Positions 9,015-63,073 of a stretch of DNA of 64,000 nt are shown one piece after another. Both the position numbers and the translations under genes were made by a program. The notes under the pieces were generated by a model. The model was given only the letters and a program-made list of their open reading frames with translations, was not told the DNA's origin and made no database searches. Numbering within the stretch: position 1 is the stretch's first letter; each line of letters starts with the position of its first letter. This DNA comes from Patescibacteria group bacterium (GTDB lineage Bacteria; Patescibacteriota; Microgenomatia; UBA8517). The DNA is taken from positions 3,151-67,150 of the forward strand of contig JBGSJG010000001.1 in the NCBI GenBank assembly GCA_041742135.1, written 5' to 3'.

Positions 9015-9107
9015 GGCAGCGGTGAGAATGTTTTGAAAAAAAACAACAAAATAGCCAACCTTCATGGGCTATTCTAGAGACCACGGTCTTGCCGCTAGAA
9101 TCTCAGC

Positions 9108-9176
9108 TGCGGGACAGGGACTCGAACCCCGATACCATCCTCCAGAGGGATGTGTCCTACCATTAGACGATCCCGC
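9108..9176 (-). tRNA. tRNA-Gln (anticodon CUG)
   Basis: Reverse complement GCGGGAT-CG-TCTAATGGTAGGA-CACATCC-CTCTGGA-GGATG...GGTTCGAGTCCCTGTCCCGCA folds as cloverleaf; anticodon loop CTCTGGA gives CUG; no encoded CCA. Confidence 0.85.
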
Positions 9177-9230
9177 AATATTAGATCGGCTAACTGGCAA
9201 GCTGTGCTTACCATTAGACGATCCCGCAAT
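9158..9230. repeat. direct repeat: ~22-bp copy of the tRNA-Gln 5' end (taccattagacgatcccgcaat) duplicated 51 bp away
   Basis: Identical 22-mer at 9158-9179 (inside tRNA) and 9209-9230; second copy does not continue into a tRNA. Confidence 0.7.
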
Positions 9231-9553: not shown

Positions 9554-9577
9554 AAAAAAAGAGCCCTTTTGGGGCTC
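9554..9577 (-). terminator. rho-independent terminator (minus strand) downstream of DUF4258 gene
   Basis: Minus-strand GAGCCCCAAAAGGGCTC hairpin followed by TTTTTTT (plus strand shows aaaaaaa-gagccc-tttt-ggggctc). Confidence 0.6.
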
Positions 9578-27642: not shown

Positions 27643-27660
27643 TAAAAATTTTTTTGTACT

Positions 27661-27992
27661 CTGGAGGACTATAAGCCAGGTTCTGTACTCTCGCCTAAGG
27701 CGAGGCCGTAATCATCTGTCTAAGCCCTAACTTCGGAGCGGGATTCGATTCTTCGAATCGTCGAGAAAGCAATCTTCTGAAGCTTTCGCTTCACCGTTCC
27801 ATTCGTAGGTTGCAGCGGGGAGGATTGCCCGTTTCACCCTTCTGCCAGCTTTAGGCTGACACAAGACTCGTCTCTGTTGCTCTAACTAGCGGTTACCCGT
27901 TTCCGGTTTTAACCGGAACACCCTTGCTTTCTGCTGCCTGGACTTTCCTCTCGCCTAAGGCGAGCGATTACACATCCTCCAGAGTGAGTATA
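27661..27992 (-). ncRNA. rnpB: RNase P RNA, bacterial type A
   Basis: Minus-strand read shows GAGAGGAAAGTCCAGGC (P4 5' strand), AAGGGTGAAACGGG, ACAGAACCTGGCTTA (P4 3' strand) and P1 pairing CTGGAGGA...TCCTCCAG; no ORF. Confidence 0.9.
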
Positions 27993-35968: not shown

Positions 35969-36050
35969 GTCAGGGTAAGCAAAGCTTGGCCCACTACATT
36001 TCGTGTCGGGGTAAGCAAAGCTTGGCCCACTACACTTCGTGTCGGGGTAG
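35969..36050. repeat. tandem 36-bp direct repeats (2 full copies + partial) each beginning with the 3' acceptor end of tRNA-Pro
   Basis: Copy A 35969-36004 gtcagggtaagcaaagcttggcccactacatttcgt; copy B 36005-36040 gtcggggtaagcaaagcttggcccactacacttcgt; third partial copy gtcggggta is the tRNA 3' end. Confidence 0.8.
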
Positions 36051-36112
36051 GAGGAATTGAACCTCCGCCGCACGGCCCCCAGCCGCGCATTCTGCCGTTA
36101 AACTATACCCCG
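36042..36112 (-). tRNA. tRNA-Pro (anticodon GGG)
   Basis: Reverse complement CGGGGTA-TA-GTTTAACGGCAGAAT-G-CGCGG-CTGGGGG-CCGTG-CGGC-GGAGGTTCAATTCCTCC-TACCCCG-A cloverleaf. Confidence 0.8.
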
Positions 36113-37958: not shown

Positions 37959-38012
37959 CCAAAAAATAACCCCCTTCAAGACGAAGAGGGCTATTTAAAA
38001 AACCAATTATTC

Positions 38013-56298: not shown

Positions 56299-56936
56299 TT
56301 TGTTTTCGCAGGTGTTGCTTTGGCTGGCTTAGCTTTTTCAAAATTATCGACGTCAAGGACAAGTGTCCCTCCGAAATAAACTTTATAGGCATTAAGGTCG
56401 CTAAATCGCTCAAAACTAACTTCCTCGATGTTTTTCAAAAACGTATGAACCGGATGATTTTTGTCTGAAACTGCAAAGGTAGCTCTTTTGGCTTTGTTGT
56501 CAGTTAGAATTTTATTTACCAAATCCTGAGCTTCTTTGGTTTTTTTAATTGCCGACAGATCACTCACTGCTACAACTTGGCTTTCGTGAGCCTTGGCAAT
56601 AAAGCTACTTTCCAGGGCCTTTATCTTCATCTTCTTTGGAAGATCCAAAATTCGCTTGTTACCCTTTGGTCCATGAGTCACACCTCCACCAACAAATATC
56701 GGAGCTGACTGGGCACCGTGTCTGGCATGCCCTGTTCCTTTTTGTTTAAACCACTTGGCTTTAGTTAAAGTAACTTCGGCTCGAGTTTTTACCTTGGAGT
56801 TCCCTGCATGCGAGCGGTCGCGGTAAACATGGATCGCTTGTGCCAACAGATCGGTATTAACTTTACCTTCAAAAACTTTGGGCAACGCAAAGCTTCCCGG
56901 GTTTTTGGTTTTGGTTGAATATAAATTAACTTTCAT
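56295..56936 (-). CDS. rplD: 50S ribosomal protein L4
   Basis: KQKGTGHARHGAQSAPIFVGGGVTHGP. Confidence 0.95.
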   Translation of the reverse strand: MKVNLYSTKTKNPGSFALPKVFEGKVNTDLLAQAIHVYRDRSHAGNSKVKTRAEVTLTKAKWFKQKGTGHARHGAQSAPIFVGGGVTHGPKGNKRILDLPKKMKIKALESSFIAKAHESQVVAVSDLSAIKKTKEAQDLVNKILTDNKAKRATFAVSDKNHPVHTFLKNIEEVSFERFSDLNAYKVYFGGTLVLDVDNFEKAKPAKATPAKTK

Positions 56937-57609
56937 TTGCCTCCTTAGCTACTTCAACCACTTCTGGTTCCTGCTTCTCTGAGATTCTTCTAATTATGAG
57001 GAGTGATCCGGGAACTCCTGGGACAGGCCCTGAAAGATGAAGTTCATTTTGATCAGGGTCCACTGCAACTACATGAAGATTTTTTACACTGATTGTTTCA
57101 TTACCCATTCTTCCAGCCATTCTTTTGCCTTTCCACACACGCCCCGGGCTTGTTCCTTGGCCGATTGATCCTGGTGCTCGGTGACGGTCCGACTGGCCGT
57201 GAGTCTTTGGGCCTCCGGCAAAGCCGTGTCGCTTCATGCCTCCTGCGAAACCTTTACCTTTAGAGACTCCGGTAACAGAGACTGTGTCTCCGACCGTAAA
57301 TATGTCAGAAACTTTGACAACATCGCCAGCCTTTTCAGTAGGCTCCGCATACACTCTTACCTCACGCAAAAAACGAGGGGCCTTGTTTTCGTGAATGGCC
57401 CCTTTTAAATGTCCTTGTAGTGGCTTGGTAATGTTTTTAATTCTTTTAGTACCCATACCAAGCTGAACTCCGAAGTATCCGTCAGTAGCTTCAGTTTTAA
57501 CTTGGGTGACAACGCAAGGCCCAGCGTTTATTACACTCACTGGTACACGATTGTTATCCACAAACGCTTGTGTCATTTTTGCTTTTGTGCCTAAAATTGT
57601 ATTCAACAT
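56926..57609 (-). CDS. rplC: 50S ribosomal protein L3
   Basis: GFAGGMKRHGFAGGPKTHGQSDRHRAPGSIG. Confidence 0.95.
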   Translation of the reverse strand: MLNTILGTKAKMTQAFVDNNRVPVSVINAGPCVVTQVKTEATDGYFGVQLGMGTKRIKNITKPLQGHLKGAIHENKAPRFLREVRVYAEPTEKAGDVVKVSDIFTVGDTVSVTGVSKGKGFAGGMKRHGFAGGPKTHGQSDRHRAPGSIGQGTSPGRVWKGKRMAGRMGNETISVKNLHVVAVDPDQNELHLSGPVPGVPGSLLIIRRISEKQEPEVVEVAKEANES

Positions 57610-57625
57610 ATTAGTAACTTAATCC

Positions 57626-57649
57626 AAAAAAACAGCGCCCGAAGGCGCT
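57626..57649 (-). promoter_or_regulatory. leader hairpin plus U-run (terminator/attenuator-like) 17 nt upstream of rplC start
   Basis: Minus-strand AGCGCC-TTCG-GGCGCT followed by TTTTTTT; lies downstream of the promoter below, so within rplC 5' UTR. Confidence 0.55.
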
Positions 57650-57708
57650 AGCTAGCTTCCTTCAAACTAAACTTCGAGGTTACGGGCTAATCCACCTCAT
57701 GTGAGAGG

Positions 57709-57737
57709 ATTATATCAAATGAGGGGAGCTTAGGCAA
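57709..57737 (-). promoter_or_regulatory. sigma70-like promoter TTGCCT-17-TATAAT for the rplC-led ribosomal operon
   Basis: Minus-strand cTTGCCTaagctcccctcatttgaTATAATc; -35 at 57732-57737, -10 at 57709-57714. Confidence 0.55.
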
Positions 57738-57747
57738 GAAATACTCA

Positions 57748-58230
57748 CTAACAGAATAACAACCCAAGAGTTTTGTGGATTTCTTCACGAGATCCTTGTA
57801 AGGCGCATAGACCGTCAACTTTTTTCACTAACCTTGGAGCTGTTTCCTGAAGTTTCCTAATCCTATCTCCCCTGTTTAGTCCCTCGTTATCTGGTTCAAT
57901 GAACTGACCTGGAGTCAGACATAATATTTCACCGTCTTTTCTCAGCGCATATGTGTGGTACATTGGCTTACCTCCATCTCTCGACACGACAGCACCAGTG
58001 CTTATCTCAAACCCATATGGCAAAACATTGAGGGCTCGAGCCCAAAACCCGCACACAGGCATCTCACCATACTCCCTCTTGTTAAGATCAAATGCTGCTA
58101 AATAGTCCGGGAAGGCTGACAGGTTTTTTCTTCTATCAATTCTTTCCTCTTCCATGGCACCAACAATAGTATCCCGATTCTCAATAATCCAAGTATCAAC
58201 AGATAAAAGTCTTTCAGCGTTGAGTGACAT
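57748..58230 (-). CDS. hypothetical protein inserted between rpsJ and rplC
   Basis: 160-aa ORF, no recognisable family; interrupts universally adjacent S10-L3 pair. Confidence 0.45.
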   Translation of the reverse strand: MSLNAERLLSVDTWIIENRDTIVGAMEEERIDRRKNLSAFPDYLAAFDLNKREYGEMPVCGFWARALNVLPYGFEISTGAVVSRDGGKPMYHTYALRKDGEILCLTPGQFIEPDNEGLNRGDRIRKLQETAPRLVKKVDGLCALQGSREEIHKTLGLLFC

Positions 58231-58285
58231 AACAATATATTATCTCAGAAACATGGGGTAAAATGCAAAAAACTATAGGGGAAGA

Positions 58286-58594
58286 TTACATCTTCACTTC
58301 AATCGATACTCCTGCTGGGAGATCGAGATTAGAAAGCATGTCAATTGTGCGCTCCGAGGGGTCTAAAATATCGATAAGTCTTTTGTGAACCAAAATTTCA
58401 AAATGTTCTTGGGCGTCTTTATGCTTAAAGGGCGACTCAAGTGTAGGGATAATTGTTCGCTTGGTTGGAAGAGGAATAGGACCGATAATTTTAGCACCAG
58501 AAGCCATAGCGCTGTCGAGAATTTTCGCAGCTGCTTCGTCTATGACCCTGTGGTCGTAGCTTTTTAGCTTAACTCTTAGTCTGCCTGCTGGCAT
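58286..58594 (-). CDS. rpsJ: 30S ribosomal protein S10
   Basis: RLRVKLKSYDHRVIDEAAAKI... Confidence 0.95.
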   Translation of the reverse strand: MPAGRLRVKLKSYDHRVIDEAAAKILDSAMASGAKIIGPIPLPTKRTIIPTLESPFKHKDAQEHFEILVHKRLIDILDPSERTIDMLSNLDLPAGVSIEVKM

Positions 58595-58636: not shown

Positions 58637-59833
58637 TTATTTAAGAATCTTGGCAATGGCTCCTGCCCCAACAGTGTGGCCACCTTCACGAATTGCAAAT
58701 CTCATACCTTCTTCCAAAGCGACTGGGACAATAAGTTTCACAGTCATCTTGGCGGAATCCCCCGGCATAATCATCTCAACACCTTCCTGCAGTATTACTT
58801 CACCTGTGATGTCAGCAGTTCGGATAAAGAACTGAGGCTTATAACCTGTAAAGAATGGCGAATGGCGTCCACCCTCGTCTTTGCTTAGAATATAAACTTC
58901 TGCTTCAAATTCTGTGTGAGGTGTAATTGAGCCTGGCTTAGCTAAAACTTGTCCGCGCTCGACATCGTCTTTCTCTTTACCTCTCAAAAGAACTCCTACG
59001 TTGTCACCAGCTTGTGTTTCATCAAGTGTCTTTCTAAACATTTCAAGACCTGTAACTGTAACTTTCTCTGTGGCCTTAAGTCCAACGATTTCAACTTCCT
59101 CGTTTACCTTCAAAACTCCGCGCTCAACTCTGCCTGTGACGACTGTACCTCGACCCTTGATCGAGAAAACATCCTCGACAGACATCAAAAATGGCTTGTC
59201 TGTTTCGCGAGCTGGCTCCGGAATATACTCATCGACCTTGTTCATAAGCTCCATAATCTGCTTTTCAGCTTCAGGGTCACCTTCCAAAGCCTTTAGAGCA
59301 CTCCCACGAATTACTGGAATCTCATCTCCTGGGAATTCATATTTCTTGAGAAGATCGCGTACATCTTGCTCAACCAAATCGACGATTTCAGGATCATCAA
59401 CTGTGTCGACTTTGTTAAGAAAGACAACCAATGCTGGGACGTTGACCTGTCTGGCCAAAATAACGTGTTCACGAGTCTGAGGCATAGGACCGTCTGCAGC
59501 AGAGATGACAAGAATAGCTCCGTCCATCTGAGCCGCACCGGTGATCATGTTCTTAATATAATCGGCGTGTCCTGGGGCATCGATGTGAGCATAATGCCTT
59601 TTCTCTGTTTCGTATTCAATGTGAGTAATATTGATTGTGACTCCACGCTCTTTTTCTTCAGGAGCATTGTCAATTTCATCAAATCTGTAAGCTTTATTTC
59701 CGGGAACGTGCTTGGAGAGAACTGTTGAAATAGCTGCAGTTAAAGTGGTTTTACCATGATCAACGTGACCAATGGTGCCAATATTAACGTGTGGCTTGGT
59801 TCTGTTAAATTTCTGCTTTGTGTCAGCGGCCAT
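58637..59833 (-). CDS. tuf: elongation factor Tu
   Basis: [22 protein letters not shown] motifs. Confidence 0.97.
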
Positions 59834-59895
59834 ATATGTATTATAAGTATTTTCTGGGCAAATTCAACTCCCGATTTCATCTCAGGATAAATGCA

Positions 59896-59924
59896 AGTAT
59901 ATTGAGGCCAAATAATTCTGTCAA
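59896..59924 (-). promoter_or_regulatory. sigma70-like promoter TTGACA-17-TATACT upstream of tuf
   Basis: Minus-strand cTTGACAgaattatttggcctcaaTATACTtgc; also TATAAT immediately before the tuf ATG. Confidence 0.5.
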
Positions 59925-59944
59925 GAGCTAAATTTGGTTAACGC

Positions 59945-60541
59945 CTAAGCATCCATGTGATCATAATCGGCCATGGACCATGAGGGGTATTCGCTGTATT
60001 TTGGAGCTAGAAGTTCGAGAGATCCCGTTGCGTTGGCTGGTACGAACAGTCTTGCATCTATGTATCTATCCTGGTGAGCATATGGGGCATGCTCAATCGA
60101 GCCAAAAAACGGCGTGTAAAGCGATGGGTAGTAGCAAATACTTACCGGCGTAGCCTGCACGCCTGTAGGATCAAAGATTAATCTTGTTTCTGGCATCGTG
60201 CCTGCTTCACCACTCGGCCCGACAAGCTCGAGCCAACAATGCGAGCTTGTCAGTGCCCACACCAGCCGCCTATCGGCCACAGAAGCTGGCAAGCTTCCTT
60301 CCGACAGAGCAACCATTGCTTGATTAAAAAAGCTTTCGCAATATTTTGGCCTCCAGTACTGACCGGTGGACCGATAAAGACCTTCCAAATAGCCAACGAT
60401 CGGTGTATCTGCCAATAATTGAGGGGTGAAAAATCCTAAATACTCTTCAAATGGAGGCATGTGGGTTGCCAAATAATCGGCAGGTAAATCTCGTTGGGTA
60501 TATACGATCTGGTCATAACCGGGGTGAACCGTTTCTACCAT
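59945..60541 (-). CDS. hypothetical protein inserted between fusA and tuf, locally higher GC
   Basis: 198-aa ORF, Trp/Tyr/Pro-rich, no family recognised; region noticeably more GC-rich than flanks. Confidence 0.45.
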   Translation of the reverse strand: MVETVHPGYDQIVYTQRDLPADYLATHMPPFEEYLGFFTPQLLADTPIVGYLEGLYRSTGQYWRPKYCESFFNQAMVALSEGSLPASVADRRLVWALTSSHCWLELVGPSGEAGTMPETRLIFDPTGVQATPVSICYYPSLYTPFFGSIEHAPYAHQDRYIDARLFVPANATGSLELLAPKYSEYPSWSMADYDHMDA

Positions 60542-60552
60542 GAAGTCAAAAA

Positions 60553-62718
60553 TTACGCAGCGTTCGCCATACCACGCTTGGCGATAATGTTTTCAGTGAT
60601 ATTCTTGGGTACTTCCTCATAGTGGGAAGGCTCCATGTAAAAGCTTGCACGCCCTTGGGTGATGGAACGTAGTGTTGTTGCATAACCACTCATTTCCGCA
60701 AGTGGCACAGTTGCGTTTATCGCCGTAAATATGCCTTTTTGTTCAGTTCCAGAGATTTGTGCGCGCTTACTGCTTAAGTCCCCGATGATGTCTCCCATGA
60801 AGTCTTCTGGTGTAGAAACTTCAACTTTCATAATAGGCTCAAGCATTACCATATCAGCTTGGCGTGCCGCGGTTTCAACTGCCATCGATCCCGCGATCTT
60901 AAAGGCAATTTCAGACGAGTCGACATCGTGGTAGGATCCATCAAAAACGGTGACTTTAAGATCCACCATCGGGAACCCTGCCAAGATTCCGTTTTCAAGC
61001 TTTTCAACTACACCCTTTTGAATTGGTGAAATGTATTCTTGAGGAATTGCGCCACCTTTAATTGCAGAAATAAACTCAAAACCTTCACCCCTACCTTTAG
61101 GCTCAACTTTGAGCCAACAATGGCCATACTGCCCGCGGCCACCGGTTTGCCTGATATACTTGCCTTCACCTTCGGCATTTTTCTTAATTGTTTCTTTGTA
61201 AGCAACTTGCGGGGCACCGATTGACGCTTCAACGTTAAATTCACGTTTCATGCGATCTACTAACACTTCAAGCTGAAGCTCTCCCATTCCCGAGATTATG
61301 GTTTGGGCAGTTTCTGGGTTACTTTTAATCTTAAAAGTTGGATCTTCGTCCGAAAGCTTGTTTAGTGCCAAGCCCATTTTCTCTTGATCTGTTTTAGTTT
61401 TAGGCTCAATTGCAAGAGAGATAACCGGCTCTGGAAATTCTATCGACTCCAAGAGAATTGGATGCGCCGGGTCACTAATTGAGTCTCCAGTTGAAGTGTC
61501 TCGAACTCCCACAACAGCCACGATTTCTCCTGCATAAGCTTCGTCAATAAGCTCCCTTTGATCAGCATGCATAAGAACGAGCTTTCCAATACGCTCAGAA
61601 GTTTGTTTACTTACGTTATACACGGCCTGGCCCGCCTTTACAGTCCCTGAATAAATTCGCATATAAACCAAGCGGCCTACGTGAGGGTCTGTTATGACCT
61701 TAAAGCCCAGTGCCGCGAGCGGCTCTTTGTTGTCGGTTTTGCGCTCTTCTTCAGCACCGGTTTTAGGATTAGTACCTTTGATTGACGGGACATCAATAGG
61801 AGAGGGCAAATACTCAACAACTGCATCAAGCATAAGCTGCACGGTTGCTGTCCTGTTGTCTCCACCCAAAATCGGGAAAAACTTGACGGCAATCACACCT
61901 TTTCTGATGGCTTTTTTAATGTCTGCCTCAGATAATTCCGCGCCTTCAAGATATTTTTGCAAAACCTCGTCGTCAAACTCAGCAACTTTTTCGATTAATT
62001 CCTCGCGGTACTTTTTGGCCGCTTCGAGCATATCTGCCGGAATTTCTTCTTCGGTAAGCTTGTTATCCTCAATAGCGGCATAGGTATAAGCCTTCATACG
62101 GAGAAGGTCCACCACTCCACGGTGGGCGTGTTCCTGCCCTATCGGCAAAATTACAGGGTGAGCATTAGCTCCAAGCCTGTCATGAATTGATTTGATGCTA
62201 CTTTCAAAATCCGCACCTATTAAATTAAGTTTGTTTAAAACACAAATGCGTGGAACGTGATAACGATCTGCTTGTCTCCAAACAGTTTCAGATTGGGACT
62301 CAACACCTGTTCTGCCATCAAACACCATAACTGCGCCATCCAAAACTCGAAGTGATCTTTCAACTTCAGCCGTAAAGTCAATGTGCCCGGGAGTGTCAAT
62401 TATGTTTATTCGATAATGTCCATTTTCAACTGAAGATGGTGACTGCAAATCCCAAAAGGTGGTAATGGCTGCAGAGACAATAGTAATTCCACGCTCGCGC
62501 TCCTGCTCCATCCAGTCGGTCGCGGTTGTTCCATCATCAACGGACCCCAACTTATAAGTCTTACCAGTTTCATACAAAATGCGCTCTGTGGTTGTGGTTT
62601 TACCGGCATCAATGTGAGCGATAATGCCGATATTTCGGATCTTTTCAAAAGGCACCAAGCGATCCTTGGTAATCGTACTGACGATGGCTGATTTTTTCTT
62701 GGTGACTTGTGCTGGCAT
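60553..62718 (-). CDS. fusA: elongation factor G
   Basis: [28 protein letters not shown] GTPase motifs; 5 domains. Confidence 0.97.
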
Positions 62719-62788
62719 ATCCGCTTACAAAAATAATCCCCTCACTGGGGAACTCAATTGTATCAAGCGAGCGTGGTAAAATCAATAA

Positions 62789-63073
62789 ATGAAAGAGCAT
62801 CTCACACGAATGATCTCCTTATTGATAGTTTGTCTGATTCTCTTCGTTGTGTGGGAGTTTTTGCTGTTTCTGAGAGTCGTACCTAGCACACTTAACCATC
62901 GCACAATCTCAAATTGCGAAAGCGCTCAATGCTTCCTTGGAACTACATGTGTTAATGATAAAAAATTATACGTACTCCGAGACACTGGCTTCATGGGCAC
63001 CTCACCATCAGAAACATATAGCTGTATATCTTGGATAGAAAATGGATTAATTAGCTTGGGTATTAAGCAATGA
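62789..63073 (+). CDS. small N-terminally membrane-anchored Cys-containing protein (paralog 1)
   Basis: TM helix ISLLIVCLILFVVWEFLLFL then Cys-containing domain with LYxxxDxGFMxT...C..W. Confidence 0.4.
   Translation: MKEHLTRMISLLIVCLILFVVWEFLLFLRVVPSTLNHRTISNCESAQCFLGTTCVNDKKLYVLRDTGFMGTSPSETYSCISWIENGLISLGIKQ

Follow-up and report, generated by a model that had tools for sequence, protein, structure and literature searches.

A clade-specific promoter and candidate attenuator leader upstream of rplC in Candidatus Woesebacteria

We analysed a 64-kb stretch of DNA (contig JBGSJG010000001.1; hereafter the window) from a bacterium of the candidate phyla radiation (CPR, or Patescibacteria), and we describe here the control region of rplC, the L3 gene that opens a large ribosomal-protein operon. 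In the window, rplC is preceded by a promoter and by a leader of ~75 nucleotides (nt) that ends in a GC-rich hairpin and a U-tract, and an open reading frame (ORF) of 160 amino acids (aa), ORF160, lies between this region and rpsJ, the gene for S10. We propose, with a probability of about 0.6, that the promoter and leader form an ancestral, clade-specific attenuator whose read-through would be under feedback control, and that ORF160 would be a separate, variable piece of cargo.

Conservation of the rplC promoter and leader

All features of the locus are read on the minus strand, in the order fusA, a 198-aa ORF (ORF198), tuf, rpsJ, ORF160, rplC, rplD, rplW, rplB and the rest of the operon, and coordinates are given as positions in the window (Table 1). 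A sequence-only reading of the window had described the core of this layout, that is, rpsJ, the 160-aa ORF, a TTGCCT-17-TATAAT promoter, a GC hairpin with seven U residues and rplC, and all of these elements are present on the minus strand. The short gap that it placed between the U-tract and the rplC start codon is there as well, although it counts 16 nt and not 17. This spacer is AU-rich, and the rplC start (ATG at 57609) has no Shine-Dalgarno (SD) sequence.

Taken singly, neither the promoter nor the hairpin exceeds chance expectation: 22 promoter-like sites occur in 14 kb against 22.6 in shuffled sequence, and the hairpin pattern has an expectation of 0.72 matches per window. Both are lifted above chance by their conservation upstream of rplC among relatives. 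The closest named L3 proteins belong to Candidatus Woesebacteria (63–69% identity), and the L3 of locus L083 is 85% identical. The rplC neighbourhoods of relatives were recovered by exact-protein look-ups and by one metagenome pattern scan, which returned seven true matches and one GC-rich false match. All seven true matches lie at or beside rplC, and the rplC start follows in six of them; L094, a duplicate of L093, ends at a contig edge. A contig scan with the L3 query returned only loci from other phyla, at ≤55% identity and through universal motifs, and these were kept as a negative control.

The promoter, leader and hairpin stand directly upstream of rplC in 12 distinct lineages, with L3 identities of 59–85% (the window, L083, L084/L088, L086, L087, L089, L090, L093/L094, L095, L096, L100 and L103). 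Across these lineages, the −35 sequence CTTGC is invariant and TG-n-TATAAT is nearly so (alignment A5), indicating that the promoter noticed by the sequence-only reading is real. A covariance model of the leader finds a single copy in the window, matches only these rplC loci, and gives no match at 80 rplC loci from other phyla. The leader is thus restricted to this clade, and it is a conserved structured RNA in the 5′ untranslated region (UTR) of a ribosomal-protein operon across a lineage, one property expected of ribosomal-protein leaders.

The leader is retained where the upstream genes are entirely different or lie on the opposite strand (L086, L087, L100 and L103), and in L096 there is no inserted gene at all: the rpsJ stop codon is followed by 15 nt and then by promoter, leader and rplC. 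Because L096 has the leader without an insertion, and because the leader is kept beside differing cargo elsewhere, the rplC control region is ancestral to this Woesebacteria clade, predates the insertion, and is independent of it. This reverses the causal order of the sequence-only reading, in which the insertion had led rplC to gain its promoter and leader.

Table 1. Features of the rplC locus, its surroundings and related loci (positions in the window unless a locus is named).
Feature	Position	Strand	Basis or remark
fusA upstream region	62719-62790	-	promoter TTGATT-17-TGaTACAAT; hairpin UCCCC-AGUGA-GGGGA; U-rich stretch, then ATG
fusA	60553-62718	-	ORF call
ORF198 (198 aa)	59945-60541	-	between fusA and tuf; no family-library match
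tuf upstream region	59834-59930	-	promoter-like sites TTGACA-17-TATACT and TTGAAT-16-TATAAT
tuf	58637-59833	-	ORF call
rpsJ (S10)	58286-58594	-	Pfam Ribosomal_S10 PF00338, E = 4.5e-31; last gene of tuf-rpsJ unit
ORF160 promoter	58239-58268	-	TTGCAT, 18-nt spacer, TGaGATAAT; sequence reading
ORF160 (160 aa)	57748-58230	-	uncharacterised protein family of ~150-190 aa
rplC-operon promoter	57709-57737	-	TTGCCT (57737-57732), 17-nt spacer, TATAAT (57714-57709), TG extended -10
Leader mini-ORF	57680-57700	-	AUG AGG UGG AUU AGC CCG UAA (MRWISP, stop); sequence reading
Hairpin P1	57676-57698	-	GAGGU...ACCUC; RNAalifold consensus; mini-ORF embedded in P1
Purine-rich SD-like block	57656-57663	-	GAAGGAAG; conserved in leader alignment
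Terminator/attenuator hairpin	57650-57633	-	UAGCGCC-UUCG-GGCGCUG
U-tract (U7)	57632-57626	-	follows the hairpin
rplC (L3)	56926-57609	-	Pfam Ribosomal_L3; first gene of rplC-rplD-rplW-rplB... operon
Canonical terminator	37961-37993	-	ordinary gene end
Canonical terminator	9554-9577	-	ordinary gene end
RNase P RNA, bacterial class A	27656-27983	-	Rfam, 111.9 bits
tRNA	9107-9177	-	Rfam gathering level
tRNA	36042-36112	-	Rfam gathering level
Tandem ORF160-family genes	L083 4804-5860		second copy frameshifted
Long-spacer region	L087 4925-5000		
Long-spacer region	L090 1626-1545	-	
Long-spacer region	L096 2880-2985		
Long-spacer region	L100 3885-4000		

Leader anatomy and proposed attenuation

The leader comprises, in this order, a leaderless-type mini-ORF, a hairpin (P1), a purine-rich SD-like block and a canonical terminator, and its two helices, P1 and the terminator, are recovered with RNAalifold and in the covariance-model alignment. 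The terminator hairpin has a predicted energy of −11.4 kcal/mol. Its stem is invariant among the ten closest variants and reads AAGGUGCC-UCU-GGCACCUU in L103, that is, with two compensatory pairs, and a U-tract (U6–U9) is present in 11 of the 12 lineages. An in-house scan found four canonical terminator-like sites in the 64 kb, among which the leader terminator scores best. Three of these sites are credible, and the fourth is an antisense match within the coding sequence of rpsJ. As far as such predictions tell, canonical intrinsic terminators are rare in this genome.

The GC-rich stem and U-tract are situated between the promoter and the start codon, as in an attenuator. The 16-nt gap to the rplC ATG is too short for an intervening promoter in the window, and no promoter downstream of the hairpin is evident in variants with a longer spacer. 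Since no promoter follows the hairpin, and since the upstream genes are divergent in several relatives, all rplC-operon transcripts must cross the terminator, and for this reason the leader hairpin most likely acts as a transcription attenuator. The sequence-only reading had likewise placed the hairpin and U-tract inside the rplC 5′ UTR and had taken them as attenuator-like and not as a plain transcript end, a description that our analysis supports.

The mini-ORF ATG stands 8 nt after the −10 element, within a conserved CACATGA. This spacing fits the leaderless class, and we infer a transcription start at A57702, ~2 nt before the mini-ORF AUG. A short ORF of 6–7 codons (11 codons in L089) occupies this position in every lineage, with divergent sequence: the peptide is MRWISP in the window and MRWISL, MRWSSS, MRWFIP, MRWFSP, MIGHIGP, MEVVCQI, (GTG)RVRRT or MVVLTNISHSS in relatives, and no conserved regulatory codons are found among the lineages compared. 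That the presence and length of the mini-ORF are kept while its sequence is not suggests that the act of translation matters.

Leaderless starts do not appear to be peculiar to the leader. In the window, −10-like hexamers are concentrated 6–9 nt before the start codons of 14 of 82 genes (crude calls), a set that includes tuf (6 nt), ORF160 (8 nt) and the leader mini-ORF, and an SD-like 4-mer is found for only 23 of the 82. The clustering of −10 elements near starts, together with the scarcity of SD-like 4-mers, suggests that leaderless initiation is widespread in this Woesebacteria genome. Upstream of tuf there are two tandem promoter-like sites, the second of which ends 6 nt before the tuf ATG, so that tuf looks leaderless.

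P1 is paired in 92% of alignment cells, with compensatory change in four of its five pairs. In the SD-like block, G47, A49, G50 and G51 are invariant (alignment A4). The GAAGG of GAAGGAAG is complementary to CCUUC in the 5′ arm and loop of the terminator and makes a candidate antiterminator: the pairing is kept in 98% of cells, with one compensatory change (GGAGG:CCUCC in L086), and nascent-RNA folds recover it in most variants. The terminator is the stronger of the two structures, and L103 has not kept the GAAGG block. Taken together, the data are compatible with a GAAGG:CCUUC antiterminator. Other roles considered for this part of the leader were rejected. Specifically, a split SD, in which the hairpin would bring GAAGGAAG near the rplC AUG, would still leave ~30 nt between them once the hairpin had folded; a second ORF beginning beyond the block would lack a conserved start codon; and an alternative CGAAG:CUUCG pairing is not conserved among the variants.

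Depending on the lineage, U-tract and rplC are separated by 12 to ~120 nt. In L087, L090, L096 and L100, an extra 80–120 nt is found between the U-tract and rplC, and in L090, L096 and L100 a long hairpin in this spacer pairs a CCCUCC-like run with a GGAGGG-like run beside the rplC SD. The window lacks this hairpin, which may act as a second control module at the level of translation.

In the mechanism that we propose, a sigma-70-type extended −10 promoter would start the ~75-nt leader of an operon of ~25 ribosomal-protein genes, every transcript of the operon would read through the leader terminator, and this read-through would be under feedback control. The effector would most likely be one of the ribosomal proteins that the operon encodes, either uL4, by analogy to the E. 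coli case, or uL3. An alternative input would be translation status, conveyed by the mini-ORF and by base pairing between the SD-like block and the loop of the terminator (GAAGG:CCUUC). ORF160 would occupy a stretch that is neutral for transcription, after rpsJ ends and before the rplC promoter. Such a leader is probably a previously undescribed feedback switch.

Several observations weigh against feedback-controlled attenuation. The sample amounts to only ~12 sequences from one clade, and all compensatory changes in P1 come from the single lineage L086. The antiterminator pairing lacks statistical support, since 54 of 500 shuffles score equally well. L089 keeps the hairpin without a U-tract, so termination is not universal. 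Local alignment of the leader to E. coli 16S, 23S and 5S rRNA gives no mimicry above shuffles; a match confined to L100, to positions 360–376 of 23S rRNA, scores 24 against a null maximum of 27 and was dismissed. A classic leader-peptide mechanism of the trp/pyrBI type does not fit the predicted geometry: the mini-ORF stop codon lies ~30 nt before the terminator and 16–19 nt from the GAAGG block, and a ribosome at that stop codon would not reach either of them. Finally, the layout upstream of fusA resembles the rplC leader, with a promoter for fusA itself, then a short hairpin and then a U-rich stretch before the ATG, and 5′ hairpins could therefore be general and non-regulatory.

Known leaders and rival explanations

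A scan of Rfam 15, at gathering thresholds and at E ≤ 10, matched no leader family to the element. The near-matches are terminator-driven models of small RNAs (sRNAs; sbrA, 22.9 bits against a threshold of 45), and signal recognition particle RNA and other known small RNAs were ruled out by the Rfam scans. In the Firmicute-type L10, L13, L19, L20 and L21 leaders, a conserved 5′-UTR structure is followed by an intrinsic terminator before a ribosomal-protein operon, and larger protein-binding domains mimic rRNA. These leaders share the logic proposed for the Woesebacteria leader, but their sequence and structure are unrelated to it and none was matched in the Rfam scans.

In layout, the element is closest to the comparison drawn by the sequence-only reading, the E. 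coli S10 leader, in which an upstream hairpin (HD) and a terminator hairpin (HE) mediate L4/NusA attenuation, and which is confined to Gammaproteobacteria (PMC3616713). Both leaders precede an L3/L4/L23/L2 operon, and both place an upstream hairpin, then a terminator hairpin with a U-run, in the 5′ UTR near the first start codon. The E. coli leader, however, is located upstream of rpsJ, whereas the Woesebacteria leader is located downstream of rpsJ and before rplC. The former is ~170 nt long with five or more hairpins and also carries out translational repression, whereas the latter is ~75 nt long with two hairpins and is further set apart by its SD-like block and by a mini-ORF in leaderless configuration. 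No sequence or covariance-model similarity was found between the two, the presence of an S10-leader model in Rfam 15 being unconfirmed. We regard the rplC leader as a candidate new leader family that resembles the S10 leader in layout and departs from it in position, size and homology.

A candidate L4 ribosomal-protein leader, its ligand assigned by precedent, lies directly upstream of rplC-rplD-rplW-rplB in Archaeoglobi (Eckert & Weinberg 2020, PMC7247131). Like the Woesebacteria leader, it is a candidate structured leader immediately before rplC, but it is archaeal and of another structure, no terminator-based expression platform is expected for it, and Rfam 15 gives no match to it in the window. 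The 2020 survey does not mention CPR lineages (PMC7247131), and the literature that we searched describes no ribosomal-protein leader for CPR.

The element might instead be a boundary without regulation, a reading that we consider unlikely: the terminator would insulate tuf-rpsJ and any cargo, perhaps serving also as a 5′-UTR stabiliser, and read-through would be fixed and constitutive. In the window, tuf-rpsJ-ORF160 transcripts meet no terminator before the one in the leader, which must therefore end them as well. In L096 the element directly follows rpsJ, and the similar layout at fusA and the statistical result for the antiterminator would also suit an insulator. However, the order of promoter and then terminator, the reverse of the usual one, is kept in all 12 lineages, even where divergent upstream genes leave nothing to terminate (L086, L087, L100 and L103). 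Furthermore, conservation extends to P1, the mini-ORF and the GAAGGAAG block, none of which a bare terminator would need.

We find it improbable that the leader senses free translational capacity instead of a single ribosomal protein, such that surplus ribosomes would shut down transcription of the operon. In such a scheme, the 5′ mini-ORF would load ribosomes in leaderless mode, and the SD-like block (GAAGGAAG or GGAGGGUGA) would pair with the anti-SD-like CCUUC or CCUCC of the terminator 5′ arm and loop, resulting in antitermination. Alternatively, the block would pair with the anti-SD of idle 30S or 70S ribosomes, and the terminator would be freed.

The chance is similarly slim that the element is an independent sRNA gene of ~75 nt that merely neighbours rplC, with the terminated RNA acting in trans. 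Such a gene would be expected to have a strong promoter and a strong terminator of its own, as the element appears to have, and would be consistent with the variable distance from U-tract to rplC and with Rfam near-matches that are sRNA models only, matched through the terminator alone. Against it, the position of a stand-alone sRNA should be independent of one target gene, and the element is found only upstream of rplC, always immediately adjacent and in the same orientation, with no further copy in the window or at the other loci. In addition, the short variants leave no room for another rplC promoter, so that the element must belong to the rplC 5′ UTR. It might also act both as leader and as sRNA.

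The account least in keeping with the data, and a very improbable one, is that a recent foreign insertion split rpsJ from rplC, after which rplC gained a promoter and, taken over from the S10 leader, an attenuator of the L4 type: ORF160 does lie between the two genes, its family does occur in non-ribosomal contexts, and the architecture does resemble the HD and HE hairpins, but L096 has promoter and leader without an insertion, the leader is conserved down to 59–63% L3 identity beside differing cargo, there is no compositional anomaly, and there is no homology to any Rfam leader.

The rpsJ–rplC boundary and the ORF160 family

The junction between rpsJ and rplC is normally tight. Consistent with this, most of the 80 loci from other phyla have an S10–L3 gap of less than ~150 nt. 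In 13 of the 80, the gap exceeds 1.5 kb or no S10 gene is present in the available upstream sequence (1.3–4 kb). These split loci come mostly from Acidimicrobiia, Ilumatobacteraceae and other Actinomycetota metagenome-assembled genomes, and include L031, L047, L049, L051, L053, L055 and L059–L062. Separation of rpsJ from rplC is therefore not unique to CPR, and the sequence-only reading went too far in stating that essentially all bacteria have S10 next to L3.

Among the relatives, the leader is kept throughout, while the cargo of the rpsJ–rplC gap differs in nearly every lineage and is absent from L096, a pattern that speaks against an insertion-driven origin of the leader. The gap holds two tandem ORF160-family copies in L083, the second of them frameshifted; 411 nt with only a 29-aa ORF in L084; two opposite-strand ORFs in L087; ORFs of 82 and 273 aa in L088; one 331-aa ORF in L089; a Trp-repressor-like gene and a 422-aa ORF in L100; and, on the opposite strand, a metallophosphatase and an ABC transporter gene in L103. 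L086 has no rpsJ nearby. By this comparison, the rpsJ–rplC boundary is an insertion hot spot with heterogeneous cargo, the reason being that an operon with a promoter of its own already begins there.

ORF160 itself belongs to an uncharacterised family. A word-indexed search returned only ORF160 and one protein of 41% identity, while an exhaustive profile search returned 193 cluster representatives at E ≤ 1e-3, mostly of ~150–190 aa, and no match was found to Pfam, NCBIfam, PHROGs, PADLOC or PDB sequences. The sequence-only reading was right that the ORF is real and of no described family; its label of a foreign ORF is unsupported by composition, as the GC content is 0.435 against 0.417 for the window. 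The −10 element of the ORF160 promoter ends 8 nt before the ATG, a leaderless configuration, and the same promoter element is found before each family copy in L083 and is still present in L084. Judged from these features, ORF160 is a real gene, with a predicted leaderless and independent transcript.

The family is found in the rpsJ–rplC slot in four lineages (the window, L083, L093/L094 and L095) and in non-ribosomal contexts elsewhere (L001, L098 and L099). The two tandem genes of L083 each lie behind a TTGCaT...TGAGATAAT promoter, and the second, split by its frameshift, could be a pseudogene or an assembly error. ORF160 is 31% identical to its L083 counterpart, though L3 is 85% identical between the same genomes. 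This disparity, together with the frameshifted tandem duplicate, appears to indicate that the family evolves fast and has a fast turnover.

Residues C60 and G108 are invariant in the family, and H92, C104, R52, S55, E56, M57 and R123 are nearly so (alignment A2); the family motifs are SEMPLC, C.TPGQF and PG.RI. An AlphaFold2 model computed with the alignment has a mean per-residue confidence (pLDDT) of 94.6 and a predicted template modelling score (pTM) of 0.88, and in it C60 is located at a helix N-terminus and H92 on a following beta-strand. A Foldseek search with the model gave nothing significant (E ≥ 0.12, TM score ≤ 0.31). The weak matches are enriched in papain-like, NlpC/P60 and C39 folds (SseI, PeiW, MOA, MepS and a C39 domain), and ORF160 is possibly a papain-like Cys-His thiol enzyme. 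It is compatible with papain-like, NlpC/P60 and transglutaminase-like thiol enzymes only in the arrangement of a Cys at a helix N-terminus and a His on a strand, and we did not file it in the papain-like/NlpC-P60 superfamily, to which it has no significant sequence or fold match.

The junction between fusA and tuf is variable as well: L083 has a 118-aa ORF on the opposite strand there, L084 has ORFs of 132 and 237 aa, L087 encodes a Bro-N protein, and in L089 the junction is empty. In the window this position is taken by ORF198, for which no homologue was found in the fetched loci and no match in PHROGs, PADLOC or NCBIfam. ORF160 and ORF198 are not paralogues by BLASTP (E = 1.0) or by the family hidden Markov model, which misses ORF198. 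Elsewhere around the locus, tuf and rpsJ are separated by 42 nt with no evident promoter in the gap, and rpsG and rpsL are not found within 1.3 kb upstream of fusA, where there are small plus-strand ORFs instead. Rfam matches at gathering level in the window are limited to RNase P RNA and two tRNAs.

CPR organisms have reduced genomes and few regulators, and in the literature searched and in Rfam 15 we found no cis-regulatory RNA for ribosomal-protein synthesis described in CPR. If our proposal is true, a compact rplC attenuator, small enough at ~75 nt for in vitro work, would show how CPR cells balance ribosome production. An operon boundary with its own promoter would also explain why, in this clade, the normally tight rpsJ–rplC junction readily accepts variable genes, among them members of the ORF160 family, whose small, uncharacterised proteins diverge rapidly and combine a confidently predicted fold with a Cys/His pair.

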